Shown here: in pieces, positions 22,526 through 64,000 of the stretch
Layout of the letters: each line of letters starts with the position of its first letter
Position numbering within the stretch: position 1 is the stretch's first letter
DNA from: an uncultured Gallionella sp.
GTDB lineage: Bacteria; Pseudomonadota; Gammaproteobacteria; Burkholderiales; Gallionellaceae
NCBI GenBank assembly: GCA_964385275.1
Contig: CAYLOK010000009.1
Span: 1,368 to 65,367, forward strand
Direction of reading: 5' to 3'
Length of the DNA stretch: 64,000 nucleotides
The notes under the pieces: generated by a model
The model's input: the letters and a program-made list of their open reading frames with translations, nothing else
Told to the model about the DNA's origin: nothing
Databases searched by the model: none
Position numbers and translations under genes: made by a program

Positions 22526-22565
22526 TGCGGCAACAGACAACGCTTGATGCAAGTTGGAAGCAGAC

Positions 22566-24506: not shown

Positions 24507-24507
24507 A

Positions 24508-34651: not shown

Positions 34652-36429
34652 TGAATCAAACTTCGCTTTCTGCTTTTATTTGGTCAGTCGCTGATTTACT
34701 GCGCGGCGACTATAAACAGTCTGAATACGGCAAGGTCATTTTGCCGTTCACCGTACTCCGCCGTCTGGATTGCGTGCTGGAAGCGACTAAACCTGCCGTC
34801 TTGATCGAGCTGGACGCAAAACAGCAAGCCGGACTGAATCCTGAACCGTTCCTGTTGCGCAAAGCTGGGCAGAGTTTCTACAACACGTCCGCACTCGACA
34901 TGAAGAAATTGATGGGCGATCAGGATCACATCCGCGAAAACCTGTACAGCTACGTTCAGGCATTTTCCCCCGCCGTGCGTGACATTTTCGAGCGGTTCGA
35001 TTTTCACACACTGGTTGATCGCCTGAGCAAATCCGGCCTGCTGTATCAAGTCACCGAGAAGTTCGCGCAGATCGACTTGCACCCCGATGTGGTCAGCAAC
35101 AGCCAGATGGGGTTGGTATTCGAGGAGTTGATCCGCAAGTTTGCTGAAATCTCAAACGAAACTGCAGGGGAGCATTTCACCCCGCGTGAAGTCATCCGCC
35201 TGATGGTTAATCTGCTGTTCATCGAAGATGATGATGTGCTGTCCAAGCCGGGCGTGGTGCGTACCATTTACGACCCGACTGCTGGCACGGGCGGAATGCT
35301 GTCTATCGCAGGCGAGTATCTGGAAGAGCATAACCCAGAAGCGCGACTCACCATGTTCGGGCAGGAGTTGAACGACGAGTCCTACGCCATCTGCAAAGCC
35401 GATATGCTCATCAAAGGTCAGGATGTCGCCAACATCATGCCGGGTAACACGCTGTCGGATGACGGACACCTGCACAAGAAGTTCGACTACATGCTATCCA
35501 ATCCGCCGTTTGGCGTGGAGTGGAAGAAGGTCGAGAAGGACATCCGCAAAGAACACGAGCAGCAAGGTTTTAACGGTCGTTTCGGCCCCGGCCTGCCGCG
35601 TGTGTCGGATGGTTCGCTGCTGTTCCTGCTGCACCTCGTCAACAAGATGCGCCCCGCCGCCGAGGGTGGCAGTCGCTTCGGTATCGTGCTAAACGGATCA
35701 CCTCTGTTCACCGGCGGCGCAGGTAGTGGCGAGAGCGAGATACGCCGCTACGTGCTGGAAAACGATCTGGTCGAAGCCATCATCGGCCTGCCAACGGACA
35801 TGTTCTACAACACGGGCATCAGCACTTACGTCTGGATACTCTCCAACCGCAAGCCGGAAACGCGCAAAGGCTACGTGCAACTGATCGACGCTTCCGGCAT
35901 GTGGCAGAAGATGCGCAAGAGCCTCGGCAGCAAGCGTAAGGAAATGTCTGATGCGCACATCGCTGAAGTCACACGCTTGTTTGGCGAGTTTGTAGGTCGG
36001 GATTCATCCCGACAAGATGAAAGTCGGGATAAATCCCGACCTACAACCGCTTCGATCAGCCGTATCTTCAAGAATGCAGACTTTGGCTATCGCACCATCA
36101 CCGTCGAGCGACCATTGCGTGATGAGCAAGGCAAGATTGTGCTGGGCGAAAAGGGCAAGCTGAAAGGCAAGCCGCAATCGGATAGTAGTCTGCGCGATAC
36201 TGAAAACGTGCCGTTGAGTGAGGAGGTGGAAAGTTACTTCAAGCGCGAAGTGCTACCTCATGCACCGGATGCGTGGATTGACCAAGACAAAACCAAAGTC
36301 GGTTACGAAATCCCGTTCAATCGCCACTTCTATGTATTTCAGCCACCGCGCCCGCTTGCGGCGATTGATGCGGAGTTGAAGCAATGCACAGATCGGATTC
36401 TGAGCATGATAGCGGGGCTGTCAGCATGA
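34651..36429 (+). CDS. hsdM: Type I R-M methyltransferase subunit (locus 1)
   Basis: [31 protein letters not shown] and NPPF. Its ATG overlaps the prlC stop (TAATG). Confidence 0.96.
35990..36046. repeat. GTAG-type REP doublet (REPIN-like) inside hsdM
   Basis: TTGTAGGTCGGGATTCATCCCGAC-N9-GTCGGGATAAATCCCGACCTACAA: 24-bp inverted arms with 1 mismatch, each arm itself a hairpin. Confidence 0.88.
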
Positions 36430-36517
36430 TTAGTGCAACTCATACGCACCCCTCTGCAATAAGTCACACGCTGTGTGACCAATCCCACTTTGCTCCATCT
36501 CGTTGGAGGTTGTCGGC

Positions 36518-36883
36518 ATGAACGATCAAAGCCAATTCCTGCTTTACACTGCGCCGAATGGGGCTGTGAAAGTTGATGTCTATTTCCAGAATGAAACGGC
36601 TTGGCTGACACAGAAAGCACTGGCTGAATTGTTTGGCGTTCAAGTGCCAGCGATCAACAAGCATTTGAAGAACATCTTCGAGTCGGACGAATTGCAGGAG
36701 TCGGCAGTTATTTCCATTTTGGAAACAACTGCGGCTGACGGAAAAAGCAACACTACTACATCTCTCCGAATTTCATCGTTCCGCCCCCTAGGATTCCTGA
36801 AGAATTTCATACGTTTTCTTATCACACCAGAAAACGGAAATTCATATAATATTATTTATAATCATGCGGTTACTATCACATGA
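36518..36883 (+). pseudogene. Truncated RhuM-family (virulence RhuM-like) gene fragment
   Basis: FLLYTAPNG...ETAWLTQKALAELFGVQVPAINKHLKNIFESDEL...ILETTAADGK matches the RhuM N-terminus. Similarity is lost before the expected YNLDAIISVGYRV motif. Confidence 0.7.
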
Positions 36884-38337
36884 ATAAACACTGGATTGCA
36901 CAGGCTGTCGCATCATTACATGCTAGTCGTGAGCCTATTCCCCATGAGATCAATGAGCTCGACTGGAAAGCACGGCTTTCAGATAATAGAGAACGGATGG
37001 CTGAACATCTTATCGCGTTTGCCAACAACCCAAACGGCGGCAATCTCGTATTTGGTGTAGCGGAACCAGATGCAGCGTTGGTGGGTGTCTCGAAAGAGCA
37101 AATGGTCGAAATAGTTGGGCAACTTACCAATTTAGGCCGTGACGCAATTGAACCGCCCTTGGTACTAGATCACGCGATGGTCGAAGTCGATCAAGTAGCA
37201 CTACTTTTCGTTCATATACCTGAATGCCGAAATAAGCCCGTACATCGACGCGGCAAATCCATCGAAGAAGCATGGGTGCGCTCAAGCGGCACAACTCGCA
37301 AAGCATCTCGTCACGATATAGGTACGTTGATGCTGCACAGCCACGCCCCCCGTTGGGAGGAACTACGTGCTTCATCTCTGTTATCTGCGAGCGAAGTGGT
37401 CGAGCGGCTAGACTTGGAAACAATTGCCAGACTGCTACAGCATCCTCTGCCGACCGAAGAGGATGAACTTATCCGCTGGCTGATAGATGAAAGTATCGTC
37501 ACCCCTGATGGGAGCGGCTATTACATCACTAATTTCGGTGCGATTGCCGCAGCAAAGCAACTCGAACAATTTGCAACCCTTGCCCGTAAGCGTATTCGCG
37601 TGATTCGTTACCGTGGCACAAACAAAGTAGAGACCATAGATGAACTTATGGGGCAAAAAGGGTATGCCGCAGGATTTGAAGGATTGATTGGCTATCTTAA
37701 ACGCAGCCTGCCTCACTCTGAAGTCATTCAGCAATCCTTACGGCGTGAAGTAACCGTATATCCTGAGATCGCGTTGCGTGAGCTGATTGCAAACTCACTT
37801 ATCCATCAGGATTTCAGTATTACCGGAGCGGGACCAACGGTAGAGATTTTCGACGACCGAATCACATTCACCAATCCCGGCACTTTATTGCCCGGGAAAC
37901 GATTGGATAGGCTGATTGGCACGACACCGGAATCACGGAATGAGGTGCTTGCATCAGCATTCCGTCGTTATCGTATCTGCGAAGAGCGCGGCACCGGCTT
38001 CCAGAAAGTAGTCGCCAATATCGAGTTGTTTGGCCTTCCGCCAGTATTATTCTCTCCACAAGAGAACTCTTTTCAGGTCACGCTGTTCGCCCCGCGCAAG
38101 TTCGCGGAGATGTCTCAGGCAGAACGTATTGAAGCCTGCTATCAGCATTCGATTTTGCAATACCTGTCCAGTCAAACTCTGACCAACACCACCTTGCGCG
38201 AAAGATTTAAAGTAAACGAGAAGCAACGAAATCAGATTACCAATTTGATTGCAGATGCAGTCACGGCTGGGCGGATTAAACGCAAAGATGCCAGCAGCGG
38301 TAACAAATTTGCCGAATACTGGCCTTACTGGGCATGA
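36880..38337 (+). CDS. AlbA_2/Schlafen-like N-terminal domain plus HATPase-like (RecG C-terminal-like) and wHTH protein
   Basis: ELDWK, IAFANNPNGGNLVFGV, ALRELIANSLIHQDF, EIFDDRITFTNPG, RNEVLASAF and CEERGTG. Confidence 0.8.
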   Translation: MNKHWIAQAVASLHASREPIPHEINELDWKARLSDNRERMAEHLIAFANNPNGGNLVFGVAEPDAALVGVSKEQMVEIVGQLTNLGRDAIEPPLVLDHAMVEVDQVALLFVHIPECRNKPVHRRGKSIEEAWVRSSGTTRKASRHDIGTLMLHSHAPRWEELRASSLLSASEVVERLDLETIARLLQHPLPTEEDELIRWLIDESIVTPDGSGYYITNFGAIAAAKQLEQFATLARKRIRVIRYRGTNKVETIDELMGQKGYAAGFEGLIGYLKRSLPHSEVIQQSLRREVTVYPEIALRELIANSLIHQDFSITGAGPTVEIFDDRITFTNPGTLLPGKRLDRLIGTTPESRNEVLASAFRRYRICEERGTGFQKVVANIELFGLPPVLFSPQENSFQVTLFAPRKFAEMSQAERIEACYQHSILQYLSSQTLTNTTLRERFKVNEKQRNQITNLIADAVTAGRIKRKDASSGNKFAEYWPYWA

Positions 38338-38350
38338 AGGAGTTAATCAA

Positions 38351-39661
38351 ATGAGCTTGCCGCGATATTCAGAATACAAACCGAGCGGTGTGGAATGGCT
38401 GGGCGAAGTGCCGGTGCATTGGGATGTGAAGTCAATTAAGTGGTTATCTCCTGTTCAACGAGGCGCATCACCTCGTCCCATTGACGACCCCAAGTATTTC
38501 GATGATGAGGGCGAATATGCTTGGGTGCGGATTGCGGATGTTTCTGCATCAGACGGAGAGTTACGCGATACAACTCAACGGCTCTCAGACTTGGGAAGTT
38601 CGCTCAGCGTTAAGATAAATCCCGGTGAGTTGTTTATCAGCATAGCCGGAACTGTCGGCAAGCCTTGCATCTCAACGATAAAGGCGTGTATCCACGATGG
38701 CTTCGTTTACTTTCCAACTTTGCAAATTCCACCGATTTTTCTTTATCGGATTTTTGAGGCGGGTGTTTGTTATGGTGGGCTGGGGAAATTCGGCACGCAA
38801 CTCAATCTGAACACGGACACAATTGGTTCAATACGTATTGCACTACCACCCACGGATGAACTAAACGCAATTTTAGCCTTCCTCGACCTCGAAACGGGAA
38901 AGATCGACGCGTTAATTGCCGAACAGCGACGGCTGGTGGAGTTGCTGGCGGAAAAGCGGCAGGCGGTGATTTCGCACGCCGTCACCAAGGGCCTGAACCC
39001 CAATGCACCTATGAAAGACTCAGGCATCGAATGGCTGGGTGAAGTGCCAGAGCATTGGGAGGTTTCGAGAATCAAACGTGTTGCATCAATTAGGTATGGA
39101 ATCGGTGAACCGCCGAAATATCACGCTGAAGGTATGCCACTTATTAGAGCTACCAACGTCCATGCGGGCAATCTGTTCGATGAAGGGATGGTATTTGTCG
39201 ATCCAACCGAAATTCCTGCGCAACGAATTGTTTGGTTGTCAGCAGGTGACATCATCGTGGTTCGAAGTGGCGCATATACGGGAGATTCGGCGATCATTCC
39301 CGATGGATATGGTAAGTGCATCGCTGGTTTCGACATGGTTATGCGGTGTCATTCGGCAAATCCGGTATTCATTCAATTCGTACTGCTGAGCAAATATCTG
39401 AAGGAGGGTCAGATTGACCTTGAAAAGATGCGAGCAGCGCAGCCTCATTTGAATGCTGAAGAACTAGGTTCATGCATTGTGGTGCTACCCAACGCTCAAG
39501 AGCAAGACGAAATCACGGTATTTCTAAAGTCGAGAAATACTGAATTCGACACCCTCATCGTTGAAGCCAACCGCGCCATCGAACTACTGCAAGAACGCCG
39601 CAGTGCGCTGATTTCCGCTGCCGTGACTGGCAAAATTGATGTGCGTGCAACAAGGATTTAA
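38351..39661 (+). CDS. hsdS: Type I R-M specificity subunit (locus 1)
   Basis: YKPSGVEWLGEVPVHW, the repeat MKDSGIEWLGEVPEHW, two TRDs and ERRSALISAAVTGKIDVR. ATG at 38351. Confidence 0.95.
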   Translation: MSLPRYSEYKPSGVEWLGEVPVHWDVKSIKWLSPVQRGASPRPIDDPKYFDDEGEYAWVRIADVSASDGELRDTTQRLSDLGSSLSVKINPGELFISIAGTVGKPCISTIKACIHDGFVYFPTLQIPPIFLYRIFEAGVCYGGLGKFGTQLNLNTDTIGSIRIALPPTDELNAILAFLDLETGKIDALIAEQRRLVELLAEKRQAVISHAVTKGLNPNAPMKDSGIEWLGEVPEHWEVSRIKRVASIRYGIGEPPKYHAEGMPLIRATNVHAGNLFDEGMVFVDPTEIPAQRIVWLSAGDIIVVRSGAYTGDSAIIPDGYGKCIAGFDMVMRCHSANPVFIQFVLLSKYLKEGQIDLEKMRAAQPHLNAEELGSCIVVLPNAQEQDEITVFLKSRNTEFDTLIVEANRAIELLQERRSALISAAVTGKIDVRATRI

Positions 39662-39732
39662 GCGCACGCTTTACAGTGCGATTTATAACATGATTTAATA
39701 CACGCTCTACCACGTTTAACCAGGAGTGCATC

Positions 39733-39990
39733 ATGTCTCACATCAGTGCCAATGATTTGAAAACCAAAGGGGTGGCCGCCATCGAAGCCATGCTGGCACA
39801 GCATTCTGAGGCGATTGTGTCGGTGCGCGGCAAAGATCGCTTTGTGGTCATGGAAATCGCCCAATACAATTATTTGCGCGAATGCGAGCTGGAAGCCGCC
39901 TTAGCTGAAACACGCGCTGATTTGGCAGCCGGGCGCTTCGTTCAAGAATCGGCAGATGCACATTTGGCAAGGATGGAAAAGCTGGCATGA
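39733..39990 (+). CDS. Phd/YefM-like antitoxin
   Basis: ISANDLKTKG, IVSVRGKDRFVVM and an acidic C-terminus; overlaps the next gene (ATGA). Confidence 0.78.
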   Translation: MSHISANDLKTKGVAAIEAMLAQHSEAIVSVRGKDRFVVMEIAQYNYLRECELEAALAETRADLAAGRFVQESADAHLARMEKLA

Positions 39991-40262
39991 GTTATGTGCT
40001 GGTTTTTACGGAATCCTATGATCGCCGGGCTTTGCGCTGGTTAAAGAAGCATCCCGAACTGCGATCACAATACCTCAAGACCTTGCAACTGCTGGAAGCC
40101 AATCCGTTTCACCCTTCGTTGCGTCTGCACGCCTTGAGCGGAAAGTTGCAAGGCGTTCATTCAGTTTCGATTAATTTGTCGTATCGCATTACGCTGGAAT
40201 TGCTGATTCAGGACGGGCAAATCATTCCCGTCAACGTGGGCGATCATGATGCGGTTTATTAA
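39987..40262 (+). CDS. RelE/ParE-superfamily toxin
   Basis: LLEANPFHPSLRLHALSG, HSVSINLSYRI and VGDHDAVY. Confidence 0.8.
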   Translation: MSYVLVFTESYDRRALRWLKKHPELRSQYLKTLQLLEANPFHPSLRLHALSGKLQGVHSVSINLSYRITLELLIQDGQIIPVNVGDHDAVY

Positions 40263-40274
40263 CGGATAACGAGC

Positions 40275-43200
40275 ATGAGCCTGCACAAAGAAATCGAATT
40301 CGAGAATGACATCTGCGCGCATCTTGCGGCACATGGCTGGCTGTATGCGGACGGCGATTTCACAACTTATGACCGCGCCCGTGCCATGTTCCCTGCTGAT
40401 ATTGCGGCTTGGGTGCAAACCACACAGCCCAAGGCGTGGGAGTCATTGAACAAGAGTCACGGCGCAGCAGCAGAAGCCGTTTTGCTGGATCGGTTACGCC
40501 GCCAACTGGATGACAGAGGCACGCTGGATGTATTGCGGCATGGCATCGAATTGCTGGGCTTACGTCAGCCGTTGCAGCTTGCGCAGTTCAAACCCGCGCT
40601 GGCGATGAACCCGGAGTTACAACAGAAGTATGCTGCTAACCGTTTACGCGTGGTACGTCAGGTGCGCTACTCGCTGCACAACGAGAATTCGATTGATCTG
40701 GTGTTATTCCTGAACGGCCTGCCGATTGCGACAGTAGAGCTGAAATCTAACTTCACGCAGTCGGTGGACGATGCAGTAGATCAGTATCGTTTCGACCGTC
40801 ACCCCAAACCTAAAAGCCAATCCGCCGCCGAACCACTGCTGGATTTCCCGCGTGGCGCACTGGTGCATTTTGCGGTCAGCAACAGCTCAGTGATGATGAC
40901 CACGCGCCTGCTGGGCGCAACCACGACGTTCCTACCGTTCAATCTAGGCGACCACGGCGCAGCGGGCAATCCGGTCAATCCTAACGGACATCGCACCGCC
41001 TATCTGTGGGAACAGGTGTGGGCGCGGGAAAGTTGGCTGGAGATCATTGGGCGTTATATCGTCGCCAAGCGCGACAGCAAGAAGCAAATCAAGGCGGTGA
41101 TTTTTCCGCGCTATCACCAACTGGATGCCACCCGAAAACTGCTGGCGGCGGTGTTAGCTCAACATTCTCCCTCACCCCTAGCCTCTCTCCCGCCAGCGGG
41201 CGAAGGGAATAAGTATCTGATCCAACACTCTGCCGGTTCGGGCAAGACTAACTCTATCGCGTGGACGGCGCACTTCCTTGCCGACTTGCACGACGCGCAG
41301 CACAAGAAGCTGTTCGACTCGGTGCTGGTGGTGTCGGATCGCACTGTACTGGATACGCAGTTGCAGGAAGCCATCTTCGACTTCGAGCGTACCGCTGGCG
41401 TAGTCGCCACCATCAAGGGTGAAAGCCAGAGCAAAAGCGGCGAACTCGCGCAAGCTCTGTCAGGCGGTAAGAAGATCGTGGTGTGTACCATTCAGACTTT
41501 CCCGTTTGCGTTACAGGCCGTGCAGGAGCTGGCTGCGACACAGGGAAAACGCTTCGCGGTGATTGCCGATGAAGCACACAGCTCACAGACGGGCGCAGCC
41601 GCATCCAAGCTCAAGCAGTTGTTGAGTGCAGAGGAAATACAGGAGCTGGCGGACGGCGGAGAGGTCGGCACGGAAGACTTACTGGCCGCAAACATGGCGG
41701 CACGGGCGAATGACGCGGGGATCACTTATGTCGCCTTCACTGCCACGCCCAAATCCAAAACGCTGGAGCTGTTCGGTCGTCGCCCCAATCTGGCACTTCC
41801 TGCCAGTGATAGCAATTTGCCTGCGCCGTTCCACGTTTATTCCATGCGTCAGGCCATTGAGGAGGGTTTCATCCTTGATGTGCTGAAGAACTACACGCCG
41901 TACAAGCTGGCTTTCAAACTCGCCAACGAAGGACGCGAGTGGGATGAAAAGGAAGTGGAACGCAGCACGGCGATGAAAGGCATCATGCGCTGGGTGCGTC
42001 TGCACCCCTACAACATCATCCAGAAGGTGCAAGTGGTAGTCGAGCACTTCCGTGAGAACGTACAGCCGTTACTCGAAGGTAAAGCCAAGGCAATGGTAGT
42101 GGTCGGTAGCCGCCTTGAAGCCGTGCGCTGGCAGATTGCCATCGACAAATACATCAAGTCGCAGGGCTACAAAATTGGCACGCTGGTGGCGTTCTCCGGC
42201 GAGGTGAACGATCAGGAGTCTCATCCAGACCCACTGTCCGAAACCAGCAAAACGCTTAACGCCAATCTGAACGGGAACGACATACGTGTAGCCTTCGCCA
42301 CGGATGAATATCAGATACTGCTGGTCGCCAACAAATTCCAGACTGGTTTCGATCAGCCTTTGCTCTGCGGCATGTACGTGGACAAGCGGCTGGCGGGTAT
42401 TCAGGCGGTGCAAACCTTGTCGCGCCTGAACCGCGCCTATCCGGGCAAGGATACGACGTATGTACTCGACTTCGTGAACGATCCTGACGAGGTACTGAGT
42501 GCGTTCAAGACTTACTTTGAAACGGCAGAGCTGGACGGCGTGACCGATCCGAATCTGGTGTATGACTTGCGCGCCAAACTGGACTCGGAAGGCCATTACG
42601 ACGACAACGAGGTGGATCGCGTGGTGAACGTGGAGATGAATCCCAACGCGTCGCAGGCTGAACTCTCCGCTGCTATCGAGCCAGTGGCGGATCGACTGTT
42701 GAAACGCTACAGGGTCGCGCAGGAAGCATTTAAGGCCGCTGTAGCCAACAAAGATGCCAACGCTGAACAAACCGCAAAGGACGAAATGAACACGCTGGTG
42801 TTGTTCAAACATAATCTCGGCGCGTTCCAGCGGGTGTATGCCTTCCTGTCGCAGATATTCGACTACGGCAACACCGCCATTGAGAAACGCGCCATCTTCT
42901 TCAAACGTCTGCTGCCGCTGCTGGAGTTCGGACGGGAGCGTGAAGGCGTTGATCTGTCCAAGGTGACGTTGACCCATCACAAGCTGAAGGATCAGGGTAA
43001 ACGCAACCTGGCACTGGTGAACGGTGAATATCCCAAGCTGGCTCCCTTGACCGAACCCGGTAGCGGCGAGGTGCGTGAGCAGGAGAAGATTTACCTCGCG
43101 CTGATTATCGCCAAGGTGAACGACCTGTTTGATGGTGAACTAACCGATGACGACAAGCTGATTTACGTGAATCATGTGTTGAAAGGCAAGCTGCTTGAAT

Positions 43201-43424
43201 CGGACATACTGGTGCAGCAGGCCAATAACAACACCAAGGAGCAGTTTGCCAACTCACCCGATCTGGCGAATGAACTGATGAACGCCATCATGGATGCGCT
43301 GTCGGCACACTCATCGTTGAGCCGTCAAGCACTTGGGTCGGAGAAGGTGCGGAGCGGATTGAAAGATGTACTGCTTGGCCCCGCGCAGTTGTATGAGGCT
43401 TTGCGAGAGCAGCGCGTGGCGTAA
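40275..43424 (+). CDS. hsdR: Type I R-M restriction subunit (locus 1)
   Basis: IDLVLFLNGLPIATVELK nuclease motif, HSAGSGKT, DEAH, FTATPK and QTGFDQP. Confidence 0.96.
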   Translation: MSLHKEIEFENDICAHLAAHGWLYADGDFTTYDRARAMFPADIAAWVQTTQPKAWESLNKSHGAAAEAVLLDRLRRQLDDRGTLDVLRHGIELLGLRQPLQLAQFKPALAMNPELQQKYAANRLRVVRQVRYSLHNENSIDLVLFLNGLPIATVELKSNFTQSVDDAVDQYRFDRHPKPKSQSAAEPLLDFPRGALVHFAVSNSSVMMTTRLLGATTTFLPFNLGDHGAAGNPVNPNGHRTAYLWEQVWARESWLEIIGRYIVAKRDSKKQIKAVIFPRYHQLDATRKLLAAVLAQHSPSPLASLPPAGEGNKYLIQHSAGSGKTNSIAWTAHFLADLHDAQHKKLFDSVLVVSDRTVLDTQLQEAIFDFERTAGVVATIKGESQSKSGELAQALSGGKKIVVCTIQTFPFALQAVQELAATQGKRFAVIADEAHSSQTGAAASKLKQLLSAEEIQELADGGEVGTEDLLAANMAARANDAGITYVAFTATPKSKTLELFGRRPNLALPASDSNLPAPFHVYSMRQAIEEGFILDVLKNYTPYKLAFKLANEGREWDEKEVERSTAMKGIMRWVRLHPYNIIQKVQVVVEHFRENVQPLLEGKAKAMVVVGSRLEAVRWQIAIDKYIKSQGYKIGTLVAFSGEVNDQESHPDPLSETSKTLNANLNGNDIRVAFATDEYQILLVANKFQTGFDQPLLCGMYVDKRLAGIQAVQTLSRLNRAYPGKDTTYVLDFVNDPDEVLSAFKTYFETAELDGVTDPNLVYDLRAKLDSEGHYDDNEVDRVVNVEMNPNASQAELSAAIEPVADRLLKRYRVAQEAFKAAVANKDANAEQTAKDEMNTLVLFKHNLGAFQRVYAFLSQIFDYGNTAIEKRAIFFKRLLPLLEFGREREGVDLSKVTLTHHKLKDQGKRNLALVNGEYPKLAPLTEPGSGEVREQEKIYLALIIAKVNDLFDGELTDDDKLIYVNHVLKGKLLESDILVQQANNNTKEQFANSPDLANELMNAIMDALSAHSSLSRQALGSEKVRSGLKDVLLGPAQLYEALREQRVA
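41169..41208 (+). repeat. CCCTCACCCC-type palindromic element inside hsdR
   Basis: CCCTCACCCCTAGCCTCTCTCCCGCCAGCGGGCGAAGGGA, an imperfect hairpin translated as SPSPLASLPPAGEG just before the Walker A motif. Confidence 0.65.
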
Positions 43425-56973: not shown

Positions 56974-56993
56974 AAAAGCCTTTATTGAATAGA

Positions 56994-58469
56994 TTACAAC
57001 GCAGCCGCAATTTCCCTGAAGCTATTCAAACCCGCTTCAAGATTTTCGATGATTTCCCCCGCCAGCACATCCGGCTCCGGCAAGTTATCCAGATCGGCGA
57101 GGCTCTTGTCCTTCAACCAGAAAATATCCAGACTGGTTTTGTCGCGCGCGATGATTTGTTCGTAGCTGAATTTGCGCCAGCGCCCTTCCGGGTTTGCGGC
57201 TTCGTTCCAGCTTTCTTTGCGCTCATGGCGGTTGAGCGGGTTGTAGCTGGCGATGAAATCCTGCAAATCCTCAAAGCGCAGCGGTTTCTTTTTCAACGTG
57301 TGATGGGTGTTGGTGCGGTAGTCGTAGAACCACACCTCTTTCGTCCACGGTTCTTTGCTGGCGGCGTGGTTATCGAAAAACAGCACATTCGCCTTCACGC
57401 CGTTGGCGTAAAAGATGCCGGTGGGCAGGCGCAGGATGGTATGCAGCTCGGTGGTTTCCAGCAGCTTCTTGCGCACTGTCTCGCCTGCGCCACCTTCGAA
57501 CAGCACGTTGTCCGGCACGACGACCGCCGCGCGTCCGGTGGTCTTCAGCATGGTGCGGATGTGCTGCACAAAGTTGAGTTGCTTGTTGGAAGTGGTCGCC
57601 CAGAAATCCTGGCGGTTGTAAGTCAGATCATCCTTCTCCTGCTCGCCATCATCATTGGTGAAGCTCATCGAACTCTTCTTGCCGAAGGGCGGATTCGCCA
57701 GCACGTAGTCGTAACGTTTGCCGCCATCGGCCACCAGCGCATCGTTGGGCGACACCATGCTGTCTCCGTCGATCTCGCCGATGTTGTGCAAAAACATATT
57801 CATCAAGGCGAGGCGGCGCGTACCCGCCACGATCTCGTTACCGTTAAAGGTATCGTGTTTGAGGAATGCCTTCTGCGTCTTGTCCATCTTGTGTTCGGAC
57901 ACCAGAAAATCATAGGCCGCCAAAAAAAAGCCGCCCGTACCACAGGCTGGATCGGCGATGGTTTTCATTGGCTCAGGGCGCACGCATTCCACCATCGCGC
58001 GGATCAGCGCGCGCGGCGTGAAGTATTGCCCCGCACCCGACTTGGTATCTTCCGCGTTGCGTTCCAGCAAGCCCTCGTAGATGTCACCCTTCACATCCGC
58101 GCCCATCGTCACCCACTGCGTTTCGTTCACCATATCGATCAGGCGATACAGCTTGGCCGGGTCTTGAATCTTGTTTTGCGCCTTGGTGAAAATCGTCCCC
58201 AGCATGCCCGGCTTATTGCCCAGTTCGCGCAACAGCGTCACGTAATGCACCTCCAACTCCGCACCGCGCTTGGCCTTCAGGCTCTGCCAGTTGTACTCGT
58301 CAGGAATACCCACCTTGCGGTTATACGGCGGCTGGCTGTATTCATCTGCCATTTTCAGGAAGATCAGATAAGTCAGCTGCTCCAGATAGTCGCCGTAGCC
58401 TACGCCGTCGTCGCGCAACGTGGTGCAGAAACTCCAGACTTTGGAAACGATAGATGCGGTTGCGTTCAT
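56994..58469 (-). CDS. hsdM: Type I R-M methyltransferase subunit (locus 2)
   Basis: VWSFCTTLRDDG, GAGQYFTPR, DPACGTGGF and NPPF. ATG at 58469 has a GGAGG SD; the ORF-track extension to 58640 is translated repeat DNA. Confidence 0.95.
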   Translation of the reverse strand: MNATASIVSKVWSFCTTLRDDGVGYGDYLEQLTYLIFLKMADEYSQPPYNRKVGIPDEYNWQSLKAKRGAELEVHYVTLLRELGNKPGMLGTIFTKAQNKIQDPAKLYRLIDMVNETQWVTMGADVKGDIYEGLLERNAEDTKSGAGQYFTPRALIRAMVECVRPEPMKTIADPACGTGGFFLAAYDFLVSEHKMDKTQKAFLKHDTFNGNEIVAGTRRLALMNMFLHNIGEIDGDSMVSPNDALVADGGKRYDYVLANPPFGKKSSMSFTNDDGEQEKDDLTYNRQDFWATTSNKQLNFVQHIRTMLKTTGRAAVVVPDNVLFEGGAGETVRKKLLETTELHTILRLPTGIFYANGVKANVLFFDNHAASKEPWTKEVWFYDYRTNTHHTLKKKPLRFEDLQDFIASYNPLNRHERKESWNEAANPEGRWRKFSYEQIIARDKTSLDIFWLKDKSLADLDNLPEPDVLAGEIIENLEAGLNSFREIAAAL

Positions 58470-58538
58470 GGGTTTTCCTCCAGAAGGCCGCCATTCGGAA
58501 ATAGGTTTGGTATCAATCGCCCGCGAGAAATTAAGTGC

Positions 58539-58671
58539 ATCATTCCCGAAGCTCTCACCCCCGTCATTCCCGAAGCTCTCACCCCCGTCATTCCCGAAGC
58601 GGTTCTGATCGGGAATCCAGCCTTTAACCGGCAAAAACAATAGATCCCCGATAAAGACATTCGGGGATGAC
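58539..58671 (+). repeat. CGTC-type palindromic doublet preceded by two 24-bp half-units (element C)
   Basis: RTCATTCCCGAAGCTCTCACCCCC x2, then GTCATTCCCGA-N12-TCGGGAATCCAG, a spacer, and GATCCCCGA-N10-TCGGGGATGAC. Confidence 0.9.
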
Positions 58672-58701
58672 GGGCTGGCTGCGAAAGATCGGCTGGGCTA
58701 T

Positions 58702-58992
58702 TCAAACCAATTCTTCCCACAAATCTTTCCAAGTCGGATTCATCTTCTCGATCAAATCTATTTTCCATTGCCTGTTCCATTTTTTAAGTTGCTTCTCTCG
58801 TTCAATCGCTGTCAGCATCTGTTCATGCAACTCGTAATACACAAGCGAGTGAACTGTATATTTTTCCGTGAACCCTTCAACCAGATCATTCTTATGCTGC
58901 CAGATACGCTGAATCAGATTGCTGGTTACACCGATATACAAAGTGCCGTTGTATCCGCTCGCCAGAATATAAACCGCAGGCTGTTTCTCCAT
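58702..58992 (-). CDS. Stand-alone GIY-YIG nuclease (YhbQ/UPF0213-like)
   Basis: AVYILAS...TLYIGVTSNLIQRIWQHK, LVYYE and AIEREKQLKKWNRQWK. Confidence 0.92.
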   Translation of the reverse strand: MEKQPAVYILASGYNGTLYIGVTSNLIQRIWQHKNDLVEGFTEKYTVHSLVYYELHEQMLTAIEREKQLKKWNRQWKIDLIEKMNPTWKDLWEELV

Positions 58993-59012
58993 TGCACAAC
59001 CTCCATCAATCT

Positions 59013-59225
59013 GTCATTCCAGAAGTGACCCCACCCCGCCATTCCCGAAGCTATCACACCCCGTCATTCCCGAAGCTATCACACCCCGTCATTCCCGAAG
59101 CGTTCCCACCCCGTCATTCCCGAGACGGCTCCAACCCCGTCATTCCCGAGACGCTTCTTATCGGGAATCCAGCTTCTAACCCACCAAAACCATGGATCCC
59201 CGATAAAAACATTCGGGGATGACGG
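59013..59225 (+). repeat. CGTC-type palindromic doublet preceded by five 25-26 bp half-units (element B)
   Basis: Units start at 59013, 59038, 59063, 59088 and 59113 (GYCATTCCMGAR...CCCC). A full arm spans 59139-59172 and a second arm TGGATCCCCGA-N10-TCGGGGATGAC follows. Confidence 0.92.
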
Positions 59226-59249
59226 CTTAGACTTTGCTCAAGGTGTCAT

Positions 59250-60086
59250 TTATTTCTTCGCCAAACTTTTCTTCGCCGGAGGCAAATAGTTTTCAGCCGA
59301 AACCAGCTTCTTGCCCGTCTTGCCTTCCAGCTCCAGCCGCGCTTTTTTGGCGATACCGCCGCCGGTCTTCGCCGCAGCCTCATTCTCATTCATGCCCGTG
59401 GCATCCATGCTCTCGGCGATCTGGCGCGTGGAAAGCTCTGCCAGCGCGGTAAAAATCAATTCGGCTTCGCTCATGTGATCGCGCAGGTTTTGCGACTTCA
59501 GGCCTTTCATTTCCTTGTGCGCCTTCACATCCACTTCCGCCCATTCCTGATGAATGATGTTGGTCAGGATCGCGTATTCCTCGCCTTCCTTGATGTCATG
59601 CTCTTTCCAGTAATCGGTCAGCTTGTTGCGCGTCTCCTGCCCCGTCATGCGCTGCTGTATCCACTTCTCGCTGCGCCCGTGCTTCTGCCAGGTCTCGCGG
59701 GCTCGATCCAGAGAACGGGCGGGGTCAGCCATCTCCTGCATCCGCTCATAGCCCACCTTCGCCAGCCACAACTTAATCGGCTCCGCCTTCGGGCTGGGCA
59801 CGGACTGCACCAACCGCAGCAAAGCCTCGGCAGTGGCGACATCGGTGAGGTAATTCTTGCCATCTGCGGCAGGCAATTTCAGTCGGTGACAATTTGTCAC
59901 CGACTGACTGCCTTCCTTGCTCAGTCGCTCTTTCAGCTTGTTCCAATATTTGCGCGCTGTTTGATAATCAGGCTGCTGGGTCAACACCTGCACAATATCC
60001 ACCACCGAAAACCACCAGGTTTCCGTGGCCTCGTCATACACGCGACGGATTTTATGCTCTTCAAAAATGGCTGGTTGAGGTTGCAT
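59250..60086 (-). CDS. BRO-N domain DNA-binding protein (antirepressor-like)
   Basis: KIRRVYDE...WWFSVVDIV, RKYWNKLKERL, LRLVQSVPSPKAEPIKLWLA and NLRDHMSEAELIFTALAE. Confidence 0.85.
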   Translation of the reverse strand: MQPQPAIFEEHKIRRVYDEATETWWFSVVDIVQVLTQQPDYQTARKYWNKLKERLSKEGSQSVTNCHRLKLPAADGKNYLTDVATAEALLRLVQSVPSPKAEPIKLWLAKVGYERMQEMADPARSLDRARETWQKHGRSEKWIQQRMTGQETRNKLTDYWKEHDIKEGEEYAILTNIIHQEWAEVDVKAHKEMKGLKSQNLRDHMSEAELIFTALAELSTRQIAESMDATGMNENEAAAKTGGGIAKKARLELEGKTGKKLVSAENYLPPAKKSLAKK

Positions 60087-60103
60087 GGTCAGGACTCCTT
60101 CCC

Positions 60104-60217
60104 GTCATTCCCGCGCCCTCTTTCGTCACCCCCGCGAAGGCGGGGGTCCATGCGATTCAAAAACTGGATTCCCGCCGGAGCCTGCCCTCGAATGAATTTG
60201 TCGGGGGCGGGAATGAC
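60104..60217 (+). repeat. CGTC-type palindromic doublet with one half-unit (element A)
   Basis: GTCATTCCCGCGCCCTCTTTC, then GTCACCCCCGCGAAGGCGGGGGTCCA-TGCGATTCAAAAAC-TGGATTCCCGCC-[insert]-GGCGGGAATGAC. Confidence 0.88.
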
Positions 60218-60239
60218 GTTATAGGCGTGCAAAGTATGG

Positions 60240-61886
60240 CTAACCACGCTTGCTCCTTTTGCCAACCGCCGAGCTTTCCCCGGCAGTTGCCCGCTCCGCC
60301 TTGATGCGCGCCAGCAGTGCCGATGCGGGTTCGTCGTGCGGGTCTTGCGGCACCAGTTGGCCGGAGAAGGCTTTTTTCAGGATGGACTGGCGCAGGGCTT
60401 CGGCTTGTTGCAACGAGGTGGTGATGGTTAGTTCGAGTTGGTCAACTTCGGACAACCTTGCTGCAAGGCTTTCAATAACCACTTCAGATTCAGCACATGA
60501 ACAAATGGGCACGACTATTGATCGAATTCTTTCTTGCCCAATGTTGCGCATGGACTCTTGATTGCCTGTCGATAGCTGCATGATTTGTTTGCGCCCAAAG
60601 CGACTGCCAAGATACTGAAGGAAATATTCCTGAGAGAAGCCATCAAATCTGATGCGAAGTGTTTTATCGCTCAGCATGATTTTCTTGGTTACCTTCCTTG
60701 CAATGACGCAGGCTCCAACGAGATCAATGGTGTTTGCTCGGCTTAGAATGAAATCACCGTTCCTAATTAAATAGGCTTCATTTTCTTTCGATGCGTCAGT
60801 GCAAGTCTTGCTTTCCGATTCATCATATTCGCCCCACGTCACCGCACTTACTTTCGCGACTCCGATTTCATTTGCACGTGGTTCGCGTTCGTCACACTTA
60901 AAACTTTTCCCCGCATCAATCGACTCAATGAAGTCACCCAATTTGCACCATCCCCACCCCTGCGGCAGTTTTGGCAATTCGGCCCGCTCTTCGGCGGTGA
61001 GTGGCGGCAGGGGTTTCGGGGCTTTGGGTTTCCCAGCACGCTGGACAAGGCTGCCTTGTTTGACGTTGGCTTGCCAGTCGGCGAGTTGTTGCTGGTAGCG
61101 TTGCGCGCGCTCTTGCTGGATGCGCTTGAGCAAGGCCTGCCCGCCGGCAGGCTGGGCATCGGCGATTTCCAAACCCATATCGTCATTCCCGCGAAGGCGG
61201 GAATCCAGTTTTTCATTCGCATGGACTCCCGCCTTCGCGGGAGTGACGGAATTTTTAGTGCGGCGTTCCTCGCGCCACTGCGCAGTGAGCTTGCCCTCGA
61301 AGGCGTGTTTCAGCAAGGCCTGGCGATACACCTTGAGCTGCGCGCGGGCGGTCTTCAGGTTCTCAATGCCCTTGTCCAACTCGGAAAACAACTCCTCGAT
61401 TTTGACGACGATGCGGTGTTGTTCGGGAAGCGGCGGCAATGGAAAAGAAAACGAAGCAATATCGTTAGGCCGCACAGCCGGATAGAGTGCACCTTGTACG
61501 CATAGGCACATCTTCTCTATGAACTCCCGCGTATGCACCAGATAAAATAGAAACTTTGGCTCAACCCTTTTCGAGCGCAAAACATGAAATCCAGTCGAAC
61601 CAATCGCACCATGAAACTCAGATGTTGCCATTGCTATTGCATTCAGGTTTGGACGGGTCATTGAGATGAGAACATCTCCGCTTTGAAGCACTTGCTTAGC
61701 TCGGCTTGGTGCGGCTGTTGATTCTAGAACCTTAGCATCTGAGATACGTTTTTGCTCACGGTCTATGCTGCTTATATCAACATAGATAAATTCACTACTG
61801 ACTGGCCCGCTCCGGTCCACAGCTTCATCAGCCACTTCGCCAAGAATAGCCATAGACCAGCCATCTGGCAGCTCCACTTCACTCAT
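60240..61886 (-). CDS. hsdS: Type I R-M specificity subunit (locus 2) with long central linker
   Basis: ELPDGW, LPPLPEQHRIVVKIEELFSELD, HAFEGKLT, LPKLPQGW and ILKKAFSGQLVPQDP. The ATG overlaps the vapC stop. Confidence 0.94.
   Translation of the reverse strand: MSEVELPDGWSMAILGEVADEAVDRSGPVSSEFIYVDISSIDREQKRISDAKVLESTAAPSRAKQVLQSGDVLISMTRPNLNAIAMATSEFHGAIGSTGFHVLRSKRVEPKFLFYLVHTREFIEKMCLCVQGALYPAVRPNDIASFSFPLPPLPEQHRIVVKIEELFSELDKGIENLKTARAQLKVYRQALLKHAFEGKLTAQWREERRTKNSVTPAKAGVHANEKLDSRLRGNDDMGLEIADAQPAGGQALLKRIQQERAQRYQQQLADWQANVKQGSLVQRAGKPKAPKPLPPLTAEERAELPKLPQGWGWCKLGDFIESIDAGKSFKCDEREPRANEIGVAKVSAVTWGEYDESESKTCTDASKENEAYLIRNGDFILSRANTIDLVGACVIARKVTKKIMLSDKTLRIRFDGFSQEYFLQYLGSRFGRKQIMQLSTGNQESMRNIGQERIRSIVVPICSCAESEVVIESLAARLSEVDQLELTITTSLQQAEALRQSILKKAFSGQLVPQDPHDEPASALLARIKAERATAGESSAVGKRSKRG
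61182..61247. repeat. CGTC/dRS3-like palindromic doublet in frame in hsdS
   Basis: GTCATTCCCGCGAAGGCGGGAATCCA-N14-TGGACTCCCGCCTTCGCGGGAGTGAC: 26-bp arms with 2 mismatches, 66 nt in total, translated VTPAKAGVHANEKLDSRLRGND. Confidence 0.92.
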
Positions 61887-62272
61887 CACCACACGACCGG
61901 AACTGAATAAGCTGCGAACGCATGATCGACAGAGACGATGGTCATGCCTTCCACAACGGCCTGGGCAATGATCAGGCGGTCAAATGGATCTCTATGATGC
62001 TGTGGTAATTGTTCCAGATAGCTTATGTGCGATAACTCGATCGGCAATAATTTTATGTTATTTTCAAGCGTATTTTTATTCACCAACTCTTCAATTGGCA
62101 TGGCTAATGATAATTTATCGAGCTGGCTTTTGATTTGCATTTCCCAAGGCGAAGCCATACTCAAATAAAATTCATGCGCGCCCGAGCTGCATAAGTCCTG
62201 CACTGTTTTGGAAAGTCGTTCAGGGTCATCGTTGAGCCAGAGAAAAACGTGGGTGTCCAGCAACAACTTCAT
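61886..62272 (-). CDS. vapC: PIN-domain (VapC-like) toxin
   Basis: MKLLLDTHVFLW, SMASPWEMQIK and HRDPFDRLIIAQA. Confidence 0.9.
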   Translation of the reverse strand: MKLLLDTHVFLWLNDDPERLSKTVQDLCSSGAHEFYLSMASPWEMQIKSQLDKLSLAMPIEELVNKNTLENNIKLLPIELSHISYLEQLPQHHRDPFDRLIIAQAVVEGMTIVSVDHAFAAYSVPVVW

Positions 62273-62493
62273 AACTTGCCTTCCAACCAAAAACTTTCTG
62301 GCAATGGCTCATTAAAGTCATCGCTCATTTTTATAAGCCCTTGAAATAATCCCAATTTTAAGGGCTTAGATGGCTGTGCGATTTCTTCATACATGACGAT
62401 TACTCGCGCTTTATGTGCTTGTATCGTTTTGGGTAATTGCAAATGAATTTGCTGGTTGAAATCAATTTCCACTGGGAATTCGAGGGCGTGCAT
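62269..62493 (-). CDS. Putative antitoxin partner of the PIN toxin
   Basis: A 74-aa gene overlapping the PIN gene. The C-terminus KLGLFQGLIKMSDDFNEPL is typical of DUF2281-like partners. Confidence 0.7.
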   Translation of the reverse strand: MHALEFPVEIDFNQQIHLQLPKTIQAHKARVIVMYEEIAQPSKPLKLGLFQGLIKMSDDFNEPLPESFWLEGKL

Positions 62494-62552
62494 GGCGGTT
62501 TTCCTTTCAAACTAGGTTCATCTGGATTGTAGCAAGCTATCCGTGCCGGCAG

Positions 62553-62601
62553 ATAGGAAGCCGCATTTTATAGCGGCAAGTCGGGTTAAAACCCGCCCTA
62601 C
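62553..62601. repeat. GTAG-type REP with degenerate partner hairpin
   Basis: 62580-62601 reads GTAGGGCGGGTTTTAACCCGAC on the minus strand. The adjacent hairpin GCCGC-ATTTTATA-GCGGC is at 62560-62577. Confidence 0.65.
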
Positions 62602-62607
62602 ATATAT

Positions 62608-64000
62608 TCATGCAACCAGTACCTCGTTGAGTTCATCCAGCAACGTATCCATCTTCGCGCCGAACAACTGATACATTTTGCCCAGCCCGCCCTGTCCGAA
62701 TGGTGGATCTTCAAGCTCATCACGTTCAATGTGAAATGAAATAGCAACGTGGTCGCGCACCATGCGCAGCCAGTCCATTTGTTCCTCGTTGAATTTTTCT
62801 GTGCCGCCGGAGTGGTGTTTCATAATCCAGTTTCTAAAGTTGCGGCGCACGGTGGCATCAAAGTCGGTGAGCGTTTCATCCATGCCGCACACGCGGCGGA
62901 TGAGCGCCACGAGTGCAGTCAACTCACTGACTGGATTCCCGCCTGCGCGGGAATGACGAGCTGTTTGGGCTTCTAAGCGTTGATAAGCTTGCCACACATA
63001 CAAGGGGGCGAGCTTGGGTTTGTCGGTTTTGAGTTTATCCAGCACCTGGCGGATCAGGTCGTAGCTGAGTTCGCGCCTGCGATACGGCTGGCTGAAGAAG
63101 ATGGTGAGGGCGGCGATGTTGTCTTGGTTCGCCTTTAAGTATTCGGCGAATTCGTCGGCGATGGCTTGCGCGTGGTCGGCCATGTTCGCTTCCCAGCCCG
63201 CGCCCAACACGGTGTCGAGTGTGTCGTGGTCTATGGTTTGTTCTTTGTCGCGGCGGATGGTGTCGAGCAGTTCCACCAGTTCGCCATTCAGCACGCTGGC
63301 GACTTCTTGTACCAATTGCTGCTGCGCCAGTTCGCGTTTTGCGTCGCCGGGGTCTGTGCCGATTGGCTGGCCTGCGAGTTGCAGCGCGCGGGCTTCGATG
63401 TTGTCGGCATCAATCGCGCCGAATAGCTGGCCGACGAGTTGGTTGAGTTCCAACCCGCCTGCGGCTTGCCGAATCATGCGCTGGTCGTCGGCATCCAGTT
63501 GTTTGTTGAGCCGCGCCAGGCGTCCGGCCAGAGATGACACGGTGTCTTCGTCCGTCGCGCCCATCATCACCTGCATCGCCAAATCTTTAAGCGGCACGGT
63601 GGGTTTGGTGATGAGCGGCTGGCTGGCGGTCTTGAGTGATTTGGTGACGCCGATGGCATCGACGATGACATAGTGGGTCTTGGCGCTGACGGCGGAGGGG
63701 GTGACTTTGCGCAGGTCGTCGATGTCCAGCGTGCGCGTGCCGCGCCCTTTCATCTGCTCGAAGTAGTTGCGGCTTTTCACGTCGCGCATGAACAACAGGC
63801 ATTCCAGCGGCTTCACGTCCGTGCCCGTGGCGACCATGTCCACGGTGACGGCGATGCGCGGGTAATACTCGTTGCGGAATTGCTGCAATACCGACTTGGG
63901 GTCTTCGTCGGTTTTGTAGGTGAGCTTTTTGCAGAACGCATTGCGCTCGTCGAATTCCTCGCGCACGGTCTGGATGATGTCGTCGGCGTGGCTGTCGGTC
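62608..64000 (-). CDS. hsdR: Type I R-M restriction subunit (locus 2), 5' part outside the window
   Basis: RIAVTVDMVATGTDVKPLE, SRNYFEQMKGRGTR and an EcoEI-like C-terminus (QGGLGKMYQLFG...LDELNEVLVA). The frame is open to the window edge. Confidence 0.92.
   Translation of the reverse strand, partial: TDSHADDIIQTVREEFDERNAFCKKLTYKTDEDPKSVLQQFRNEYYPRIAVTVDMVATGTDVKPLECLLFMRDVKSRNYFEQMKGRGTRTLDIDDLRKVTPSAVSAKTHYVIVDAIGVTKSLKTASQPLITKPTVPLKDLAMQVMMGATDEDTVSSLAGRLARLNKQLDADDQRMIRQAAGGLELNQLVGQLFGAIDADNIEARALQLAGQPIGTDPGDAKRELAQQQLVQEVASVLNGELVELLDTIRRDKEQTIDHDTLDTVLGAGWEANMADHAQAIADEFAEYLKANQDNIAALTIFFSQPYRRRELSYDLIRQVLDKLKTDKPKLAPLYVWQAYQRLEAQTARHSRAGGNPVSELTALVALIRRVCGMDETLTDFDATVRRNFRNWIMKHHSGGTEKFNEEQMDWLRMVRDHVAISFHIERDELEDPPFGQGGLGKMYQLFGAKMDTLLDELNEVLVA
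62931..62957 (-). repeat. Single CGTC/dRS3-like palindrome in frame in hsdR
   Basis: Minus strand reads GTCATTCCCGCGCAGGCGGGAATCCAG (ATTCCC-N8-GGGAAT), translated RHSRAGGNP. Confidence 0.9.

Follow-up and report, generated by a model that had tools for sequence, protein, structure and literature searches.

An Ssn-type GIY-YIG nuclease gene and its putative hairpin targets nested in a type I restriction-modification operon of a Gallionella-like bacterium

Palindromic elements mark the gene junctions of hsd locus 2, a type I restriction-modification (R-M) locus in a 64,000-nt stretch of DNA from an uncultured Gallionella sp. (GenBank assembly GCA_964385275.1, contig CAYLOK010000009.1; this whole stretch is hereafter "the window"). 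The original prediction took three of these elements, A, B and C, and the BRO-N and GIY-YIG genes between them for an integrase-free cassette array inside a defence operon. Our analysis favors a different explanation, to which we assign a probability of ~0.8: the locus is a type I R-M operon island carrying a vapBC toxin–antitoxin pair, a BRO-N gene (PDC-S13) and an Ssn/NTS module, i.e., the gene of a small GIY-YIG nuclease together with hairpin repeats that would be its cognate sites. We prefer this reading because of the identity of the protein and of the repeat family, their association across phyla, the clustering of the repeats around the gene, and the presence and absence of the module among related loci. 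Rather than a new integrase-free cassette system, the locus thus represents a known module in a new setting.

The gene between elements B and C encodes a 96-aa protein with one GIY-YIG domain (PF01541, residues 6–78) and no other domain. Over its full length, this protein is 67–69% identical to a homolog from Neisseria musculi, the gene of which has NTS dimers on both sides. Residues Y8, Y19 and E66 are invariant in the alignment, where they occupy columns 6, 17 and 64 of the N. musculi homolog and align with Y6, Y17 and E64 of SsnA, i.e., the residues mutated in the Neisseria meningitidis protein. SsnA is a small GIY-YIG protein of N. meningitidis belonging to CDD family cd10448 (Chenal et al. 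2025, Nat Commun 16:2388, PMC11893778), whose binding to the 28-nt NTS hairpin CGTCATTCCCGCGMAVGCGGGAATCYRG requires single-stranded DNA. It does not bind RNA, and it cuts a few nucleotides before the hairpin's CGTC head, on the 5′ side. In N. meningitidis, it cuts incoming NTS-bearing single strands and lowers transformation and recombination by NTS-bearing DNA. The NTS-ssnA-NTS arrangement resembles an insertion sequence, and such motifs are found close to 71% of ssn homologs, and on both sides of 42% (PMC11893778). Here too, hairpins flank the gene on both sides, with B upstream, C downstream, and two CGTC-tagged hairpins in each. Judged from its sequence, the 96-aa protein is a homolog of the Ssn-family nucleases and a putative member of cd10448.

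The repeats share a common anatomy, with each unit folding into a hairpin that has an unpaired CGTC head, an 8-bp stem with AT at its start, and a CCA-type tail. Elements B and C both contain hairpin H1 on the plus strand (CGTC-ATTCCCGA-loop11-TCGGGAAT-CCAG) and hairpin H2 on the minus strand (CGTC-ATCCCCGA-loop9-TCGGGGAT), which oppose each other over a 19-nt spacer to form an inverted dimer with the CGTC heads facing outward. Both also include tandem units of 24 or 25 nt in the same orientation (2.5 copies in C, 5.4 in B), which correspond to the repeated head and left half-stem of H1. B and C are direct repeats of each other, 87% identical over 91 nt. Element A is itself an inverted dimer and has ~14 nt (TCCCGTCATTCCCG) in common with B and C, nothing more; over its inner 53 nt, it matches the reverse complement of a dimer located inside hsdS at 92% identity. 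The original prediction had all three elements in one orientation and both BRO-N and GIY-YIG bounded by direct repeats. This is correct for B and C, but since A is a different family member, BRO-N is not enclosed by true direct repeats.

Copies of the same family also occur within coding sequences. The hairpins of the hsdS-internal dimer have 4-nt loops and are translated as VTPAKAGVHANEKLDSRLRGND (VTPAKAGVH…DSRLRGND), an NTS in hsdR is translated in frame as …ARHSRAGGNPV…, and a third in-frame intragenic copy, an H1-type hairpin, lies in hsdR past the end of the window (~64,520–64,560; L001 ~4430–4470). Element A and these in-frame hsdS and hsdR copies are satellites of the same repeat family.

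Across the window, these repeats are both strongly enriched and tightly clustered. The motif GTCATTCCCG was found 23 times with ≤1 mismatch (5.0 expected), and its 11 exact copies all fall at 58.5–63.0 kb, with no exact copy in the other 58 kb. The dRS3 pattern ATTCCC-N8-GGGAAT was found twice (0.01 expected), and the published SRM pattern had four matches (0.5 expected), all inside hsd locus 2. Two exact matches to the 28-nt NTS consensus were detected, one in hsdS and one in hsdR (Table 1), 2.2 and 3.9 kb from the GIY-YIG gene, and one further match carries 3 mismatches. All copies of the family lie within ~5.6 kb of the nuclease gene. We assign elements A, B and C and the intragenic copies to the NTS/SRM hairpins, within the CGTC-tagged superfamily of repetitive extragenic palindromes (REPs) and with a dRS3 core; their likening to the dRS3/NIME repeats of Neisseria in the original prediction is therefore upheld by the two exact consensus matches. 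An Rfam scan of 58000–63200 returned only two sub-threshold chance matches (mir-513 and RAGATH-10). The GTAG REP that had also been proposed between the antitoxin gene and hsdR is real, and belongs to a separate repeat superfamily outside the Ssn module; a related GTAG REP doublet was seen at 35990–36046, inside the hsdM open reading frame (ORF) of hsd locus 1.

Next, we evaluated the association between gene and repeats across genomes, using the 80 best species-level genome loci with an ssn homolog (1.125 Mb, many phyla), a set biased to relatives of the window protein. Homologs of the GIY-YIG protein at ≥80% identity number in the thousands, in Gallionellaceae and Nitrosomonas, and homologs at ≥63% identity occur in many phyla. 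In the 80 loci, GTCATTCCCG or its complement occurs 225 times, including 177 occurrences ≤500 nt from the gene, with a pile-up within 300 nt on either side of the ssn homologs. Overall, the motif lies upstream in 51 loci, downstream in 51, and on both sides in 43. The usual layout is CGTCATTCCCGCGAAGGCGGGAATCCA, ~10 nt, the ORF, ~5 nt, and TGGATTCCCGCCTGCGCGGGAATGACG. The dimer inside hsdS is the same hairpin pair as these usual flanks, without the gene, and the H2+H1 dimer recurs downstream of ssn in L089, L090 and L092. Between two ssn copies in one metagenome-assembled genome (MAG; L156 and L161), homology extends only between the outer CGTC heads, delimiting a unit of ~540 bp with ~50-nt inverted ends. 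Because GTCATTCCCG piles up on both sides of the gene in these loci, B-GIY-YIG-C most plausibly forms one module (NTS-ssn-NTS), and not a passenger cassette with repeats at its ends.

Half-sites, each comprising the CGTC head and the left half of the stem, were also seen in tandem arrays (21–26-nt period) beside a complete hairpin near ssn in unrelated genomes, i.e., L111 (up to 9 units), L116, L108, L104 and L098, and the number of units varies between strains.

Loci related to hsd locus 2 bear directly on the cassette array of the original prediction, in which the hairpins would act as integrase-free recombination sites and BRO-N and GIY-YIG would enter and leave precisely at the repeats. 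Gene content at the hsdS–hsdM junction does vary among loci with HsdM 90–97% identical to that of the window: L022 has BRO only, L091 and L092 have ssn only, and the window has both. Specifically, L022 reads hsdS-BRO-hsdM (HsdM 97%, HsdS C-terminus 91% and BRO 86% identical), without ssn, A, B or C, and with a different palindrome in the BRO-hsdM spacer. In Nitrosomonas mobilis (L091) and Nitrosomonas oligotropha (L092), the order is hsdR-hsdS-NTS-ssn-NTS-hsdM, without BRO, and vapBC was not detectable. Mobility at the repeats is also suggested by L089, which retains the BRO-B-ssn-C block, collinear, in a different defence context (a Schlafen-type helicase and a NERD nuclease), and by the remnant of hsdM right after the ssn stop codon in L089 (6482–6560) and L090 (10289–10330): there, the ribosome-binding site and first ~20 nt of hsdM are broken off exactly at a hairpin, and the remainder of hsdM is absent. 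Direct repeats such as B and C could in addition delete ssn, and NIME/dRS3 arrays have been proposed to promote the exchange of neighboring genes (PMC1797815). Matches to HsdR on both sides of ssn in L089 were rejected as matches to the hairpin-encoded peptide.

Several patterns argue against repeats acting as exchange points for both genes, however. None of the elements accompanies BRO and hsdM in L022, nor in unitigs from two separate groundwater runs (X8 and X11), in which 58470 is joined to 59269 with the same 21 nt in between, placing BRO beside hsdM without B, ssn and C. A and B have only ~14 nt in common. Within the window, hsd locus 1 (34651–43424; hsdM, a small ORF, an embedded Schlafen AlbA_2/HATPase_c_4 gene, hsdS and hsdR) provides an internal control, with no NTS hairpins despite its embedded gene. 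In Neisseria, SsnA lowers the recombination of NTS-flanked DNA (PMC11893778). Finally, none of the precise B–C or A–B deletions anticipated by the original prediction, and no hybrid joint with gene flanks, was found in public runs, where the data are assembled contigs, which drop rare variants. One contig (X5) joining 58620 to 59174 was considered as a B/C recombinant and rejected: it matches the element only, with 34 nt on the shorter side. Since the match is confined to the element and neighboring bins are almost without depth, this contig probably derives from a third copy elsewhere.

BRO-N itself also argues against the cassette array. More than 580 metagenome loci encode a relative of the window protein; we compared the best 80 (76–95% identical; 700 kb in total), and these hold only ~3 hairpins. 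In dozens of loci, nucleotide homology of the BRO unit starts ~14 nt ahead of its ATG and ends with the stop codon; the unit boundaries are the same there, and hairpins are absent. BRO-N thus appears not to depend on the repeats. Its protein corresponds to the PADLOC phage-defence candidate PDC-S13, an embedded accessory gene, with no matching NCBIfam model. Taken together, a repeat-bounded cassette array is unlikely. From the original prediction, we retain a junction with variable gene content and gene boundaries that coincide with repeats in homologous loci for the ssn unit, though not for BRO-N, and not a GIY-YIG gene as passenger; the array was also rightly called integrase-free, as genes called within 10 kb on either side include no integrase, recombinase or transposase domain. 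The unit gained or lost together with its repeats appears to be repeat-ssn-repeat.

BRO-N presented further patterns of its own. The protein is unusually conserved and often found beside type I or type II R-M genes (L009–L088), and the window copy is nearer to that of L009 (95%) than to that of L022 (86%), even though L022 is the most similar hsd locus. The BRO-N coding sequence includes a perfect palindrome, CAGTCGGTGACAATTTGTCACCGACTG (59881–59907), encoding …VTNCHRL…, and a similar palindrome, TTTCAACCGGTGACAAATTGTCACCGGTTGAAA, lies at the hsdS 3′ end just upstream of BRO-N in L022 (640–675). The BRO-N palindrome could be an operator-like site.

Alternatively, the hairpins may be ordinary REP-like intercistronic elements acting on the operon mRNA as stem-loops behind stop codons, either by stabilizing upstream segments or by tuning expression, in which case their nearness to the GIY-YIG gene would be meaningless. 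All of the elements are part of an operon whose genes point the same way, and all form stable RNA folds (−53 to −62 kcal/mol; z −2.7 to −9.4; the hsdS-internal dimer has z = −9.4). H2 begins 24–28 nt after the BRO-N and ssn stop codons, and CGTC REPs, most of which are located right behind ORFs, have been proposed to act as RNA (PMC3733652). We nonetheless judge this account quite improbable: it does not account for a motif that accumulates on either side of ssn homologs across phyla, for hairpins being missing in hsd locus 1 and elsewhere in the window, or for the in-frame copies within coding sequences. The stems are not followed by a T-run, so that the hairpins are not intrinsic terminators, and SsnA does not bind RNA (PMC11893778), making an RNA role an addition to the nuclease model and not an alternative to it.

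Within the favored reading of an Ssn/NTS module in an R-M operon island, the NTS-ssn-NTS unit would have entered the BRO-hsdM spacer as one piece. Hairpins would sit at gene junctions or in permissive in-frame linkers, as only such insertions would be tolerated in an operon, and cleavage and repair at extruded hairpins would yield the variable half-site arrays and, occasionally, new copies nearby. For single-stranded hairpin binding, cutting and lowered recombination, this scenario borrows from experiments on the Neisseria protein (PMC11893778). Some observations fit less comfortably. H1 and H2, the hairpins beside the gene, fall outside the published SRM search pattern with their loops of 9–11 nt, and the gene lies between direct repeats of entire dimers (B and C), where most other loci have single inverted hairpins. 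No NCBIfam, PADLOC or PHROGs model matches the GIY-YIG protein, and a PDB sequence search gave spurious WD40 matches only, with no sequence-related solved structure. Recognition of H1 and H2 by the nuclease is assumed, and its cleavage, mobility and effect on recombination in a Gallionella-like host are presumed by analogy with the Neisseria protein. The hairpins, being transcribed with the operon, could also act at the RNA level.

A further possibility is that NTS-ssn-NTS is a selfish element akin to an insertion sequence, for which the junction would be a safe landing site and the satellites miniature non-autonomous copies, with no benefit to the host or its R-M system. The architecture is the same as that of insertion sequences (PMC11893778), and inverted NTS ends delimit both of the diverged copies found in a single MAG. 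Close ssn homologs on short contigs number in the thousands, and some genomes or loci carry more than one copy. Type I operons harbor the unit at three different kinds of junction. In L144 (3560–4150), where NTS-ssn-NTS separates hsdR from hsdS, two diverged copies of the final ~14 hsdR codons enclose it; a fragment of another hsdR may have come in with this unit. On the other hand, we know of no strand-transfer activity for a GIY-YIG nuclease alone, and no target-site duplication was seen by eye at the outer ends of B and C. The hairpins also seem low-copy here, with none in 58 kb of the window and a word depth of the hsdS dimer ~23× that of the locus in the source metagenome, which is an upper bound. 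Lastly, the hsdS-internal copy is old, in frame, and conserved across Nitrosomonas homologs. A purely selfish element therefore strikes us as conceivable but doubtful.

The location of the module in a type I R-M operon is not restricted to the window. Of the 80 nearest species-level ssn homologs, a sample skewed to relatives of the window protein, 11 are enclosed by type I hsd genes that share one orientation, at S|M, M|S and R|S junctions and in at least six lineages (Nitrosomonas, Porticoccaceae, Endozoicomonas and relatives, Zoogloea, an unclassified Pseudomonadota MAG, and Syntrophales). Downstream of ssn, the most frequent family is Methylase_S (8 of 70 neighbors). The R-M context is not mentioned in the paper defining Ssn (PMC11893778), and we found no later Ssn paper; the nesting in type I R-M operons is thus possibly new here, while the module itself is already known. 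We tentatively suggest that Ssn/NTS modules are recurrently nested in such operons, either in functional partnership or as a selfish specialist of R-M junctions. In a partnership, restriction of single-stranded DNA could cover entry by transformation or conjugation that is missed by the double-strand type I enzyme, or NTS marks could stop replacement of the operon by incoming alleles. If selfish, the unit would specialize in R-M operon junctions and travel with them between genomes. Should the link to type I R-M hold in a census, it would provide a handle on the role of Ssn nucleases outside Neisseria, and would also bear on how accessory genes become embedded in defence operons.

More broadly, an odd "cassette architecture" can now be assigned to a nuclease-repeat system published in 2025, so that the locus can be annotated properly. 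Compared with the Neisseria system (PMC11893778), the module has the same single-domain GIY-YIG protein of ~100 aa with the same catalytic Tyr, Tyr and Glu, the exact 28-nt NTS (twice), CGTC hairpins on both sides, and hairpins clustered around the gene. It extends Ssn/NTS to an environmental iron-oxidizer lineage (a Gallionella-like host), to long-loop (9–11-nt) hairpins with half-site arrays beside the gene, to a defence-operon setting inside type I R-M, and to in-frame copies in hsdS and hsdR, of which there are three here; in N. meningitidis, by contrast, intragenic NTS are rare (2%; PMC11893778).

The repeats themselves recall several known families. Like dRS3 and NIME, they have an ATTCCC-N8-GGGAAT core, units in inverted repeat, and variable, horizontally exchanged genes (PMC1797815). 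A NIME array consists of 50–150-bp RS elements each flanked by dRS3 units, whereas here we observed only dimers with 12–19-nt spacers plus half-sites, and no RS elements between dRS3 units. NIME arrays were called Neisseria-specific in 2007 (PMC1797815), and the host here lies outside Neisseriaceae. Di Nocera et al. (2013) defined the CGTC-tagged REPs, with CGTC-1 equal to the Neisseria dRS3, and found no dedicated enzyme (PMC3733652). The repeats of hsd locus 2 resemble these REPs in the CGTC head, the 8-bp AT-starting stem, the CCA-type tail, the inverted dimers, the sites just downstream of ORFs and the occasional in-frame intragenic copies, but they have an enzyme gene between them, as in Chenal et al. 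The REP/REPIN-RAYT systems likewise combine a single nuclease gene between its own inverted hairpins, doublets that form larger hairpins, and a family dispersed in the genome; in contrast, the enzyme here is a GIY-YIG protein and not an HUH tyrosine transposase, the heads are CGTC and not GTAG, and the GTAG REPs of the window form a family separate from the repeats of the nuclease.

Integrons share with hsd locus 2 promoterless co-oriented ORFs, each followed by an imperfect palindrome folding as single-stranded DNA. However, no IntI is found within 10 kb, the palindromes are NTS hairpins and not attC sites, one "cassette" would encode the repeat-recognizing enzyme, and BRO-N occurs elsewhere without repeats. 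Co-oriented genes embedded in type I operons are a known general pattern (TgvAB, PMC11411939; Payne et al. 2024, preprint 10.1101/2024.01.29.577857), and the accessory genes between hsd genes, PDC-S13, and the toxin–antitoxin pair between hsdR and hsdS all conform to it. These studies treat embedded proteins, and mention no nuclease-plus-repeat module, GIY-YIG or hairpin repeats.

We next considered the age and spread of the hairpin copies. The in-frame hsdS dimer is also present, in diverged form, in the HsdS of N. mobilis (L091 ~8860–8900) and N. oligotropha (L092 ~4210–4260); as it is shared with these homologs, the hsdS-internal insertion is old and tolerated in the central linker. It is missing from an X8 relative, which has 32 nt in place of 134 nt. 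The HsdR of N. mobilis and N. oligotropha lacks the 6–7 residues of the first hsdR insertion (62931–62958). Half-units vary as well: L006 has one 25-nt unit fewer in B, and the half-units of B are absent or fewer in the X8 and X11 relatives. In groundwater and microbial-mat metagenomes (X1, X7, X8 and X11), the word depth of the NTS dimer (61168–61361) reaches 4,205–50,528, compared to 180–500 for flanking genes, and that of the H2 hairpin (58626–58672) reaches 560–1,300. Such hairpins are abundant across groundwater and microbial-mat communities.

Table 1 Features of hsd locus 2 in window coordinates
Feature	Position	Strand or location	Description
hsdM	56994–58469	−	491 aa; Pfam N6_Mtase and HsdM_N; PADLOC MTase_I (E 6e-196)
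Element C	58535–58673	intergenic, ssn/hsdM spacer	inverted dimer of CGTC-tagged hairpins with half-sites: two 24-nt half-site units 58535–58582; H1 58583–58622 (+); spacer; H2 58642–58673 (−)
ssn homolog (GIY-YIG)	58702–58992	−	96 aa; Pfam PF01541 over residues 6–78
Element B	59013–59225	intergenic, BRO-N/ssn spacer	direct repeat of C: ~five 25-nt half-site units 59013–59134; H1 59135–59174 (+); spacer; H2 59194–59225 (−)
BRO-N protein	59250–60086	−	278 aa; Pfam Bro-N; PADLOC PDC-S13 (E 2.7e-120)
Element A	60100–60219	intergenic, hsdS/BRO-N spacer	half-site 60100–60114; SRM hairpin CGTCACCCCCGCGAAGGCGGGGGTCCAT 60124–60151 (+); spacer; long-loop inverted NTS 60165–60219 (−)
hsdS	60240–61892	−	Pfam Methylase_S; PADLOC Specificity_I (E 3e-90)
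NTS dimer in hsdS	61181–61248	in frame, central linker	exact NTS 61181–61208 (+); 12-nt spacer; SRM 61221–61248 (−)
PIN/vapC toxin	61886–62290	−	Pfam PIN
VapB-like antitoxin	62269–62493	−	weak NCBIfam VapB match
GTAG REP	62582–62601	−	GTAGGGCGGGTTTTAACCCG; hsdR-antitoxin spacer
hsdR, C-terminal part	62608 to beyond 64000	−	Pfam EcoEI_R_C; gene leaves the window
NTS in hsdR	62931–62958	−	exact NTS, in frame

Based on gene families assigned by Pfam, NCBIfam and PADLOC models, the locus is a type I R-M operon with embedded genes, i.e., hsdR, hsdM and hsdS with co-oriented non-hsd genes on one strand (Table 1). All genes at 56994–64000 lie on the minus strand in the order hsdR, vapB, vapC, hsdS, [A], BRO-N, [B], GIY-YIG, [C] and hsdM, which confirms the gene order and junction elements proposed originally. 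The vapBC-type pair is embedded between hsdR and hsdS (61886–62493), and the full-length hsdR encodes 1038 aa in L001. Public annotations disagree on hsdM, with 491 aa in one and 548 aa in another. We rejected the 548-aa ORF, which starts from 58640 and runs through element C, as an artefact: a GGAGG ribosome-binding site precedes the ATG at 58469, and this start matches the start Met of the L091 and L022 homologs (95–97% identical).

The whole island (~9 kb; window 56974–64000 plus L001 1–6385) is inserted between metW and ampG, co-oriented with metXW and ampG and separated from them by spacers of 18 and 20 nt. The RsmA and AmpG proteins fall in ≥90% identity clusters with Gallionella MAG proteins, and the host is a Gallionella-like betaproteobacterium. 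In five close relatives (L169–L173; AmpG ≥90%; including Gallionella sp. GCA_030652475.1), metW and ampG overlap by ATGA, without the hsd island, and no hairpins were found in the 98-kb syntenic region of these five genomes.

A different R-M island occupies the same ampG junction in L009 (1–8055; AmpG 85%), comprising a Dcm-HNH fusion, EcoRII-C, a BRO-N 95% identical to that of the window, two unknown genes, Fic and HhH-GPD, with an NTS hairpin at the junction, directly before the shared ampG leader. The ampG junction looks like a defence-island hotspot with BRO-N as a shared piece. Elsewhere in the window, a segment at 22554–25233 has a G+C content of 0.40–0.42, compared to ~0.56, and contains a fused restriction-methylase gene of the TaqI_C/N6_Mtase/Eco57I type; it is probably another horizontally acquired R-M element.

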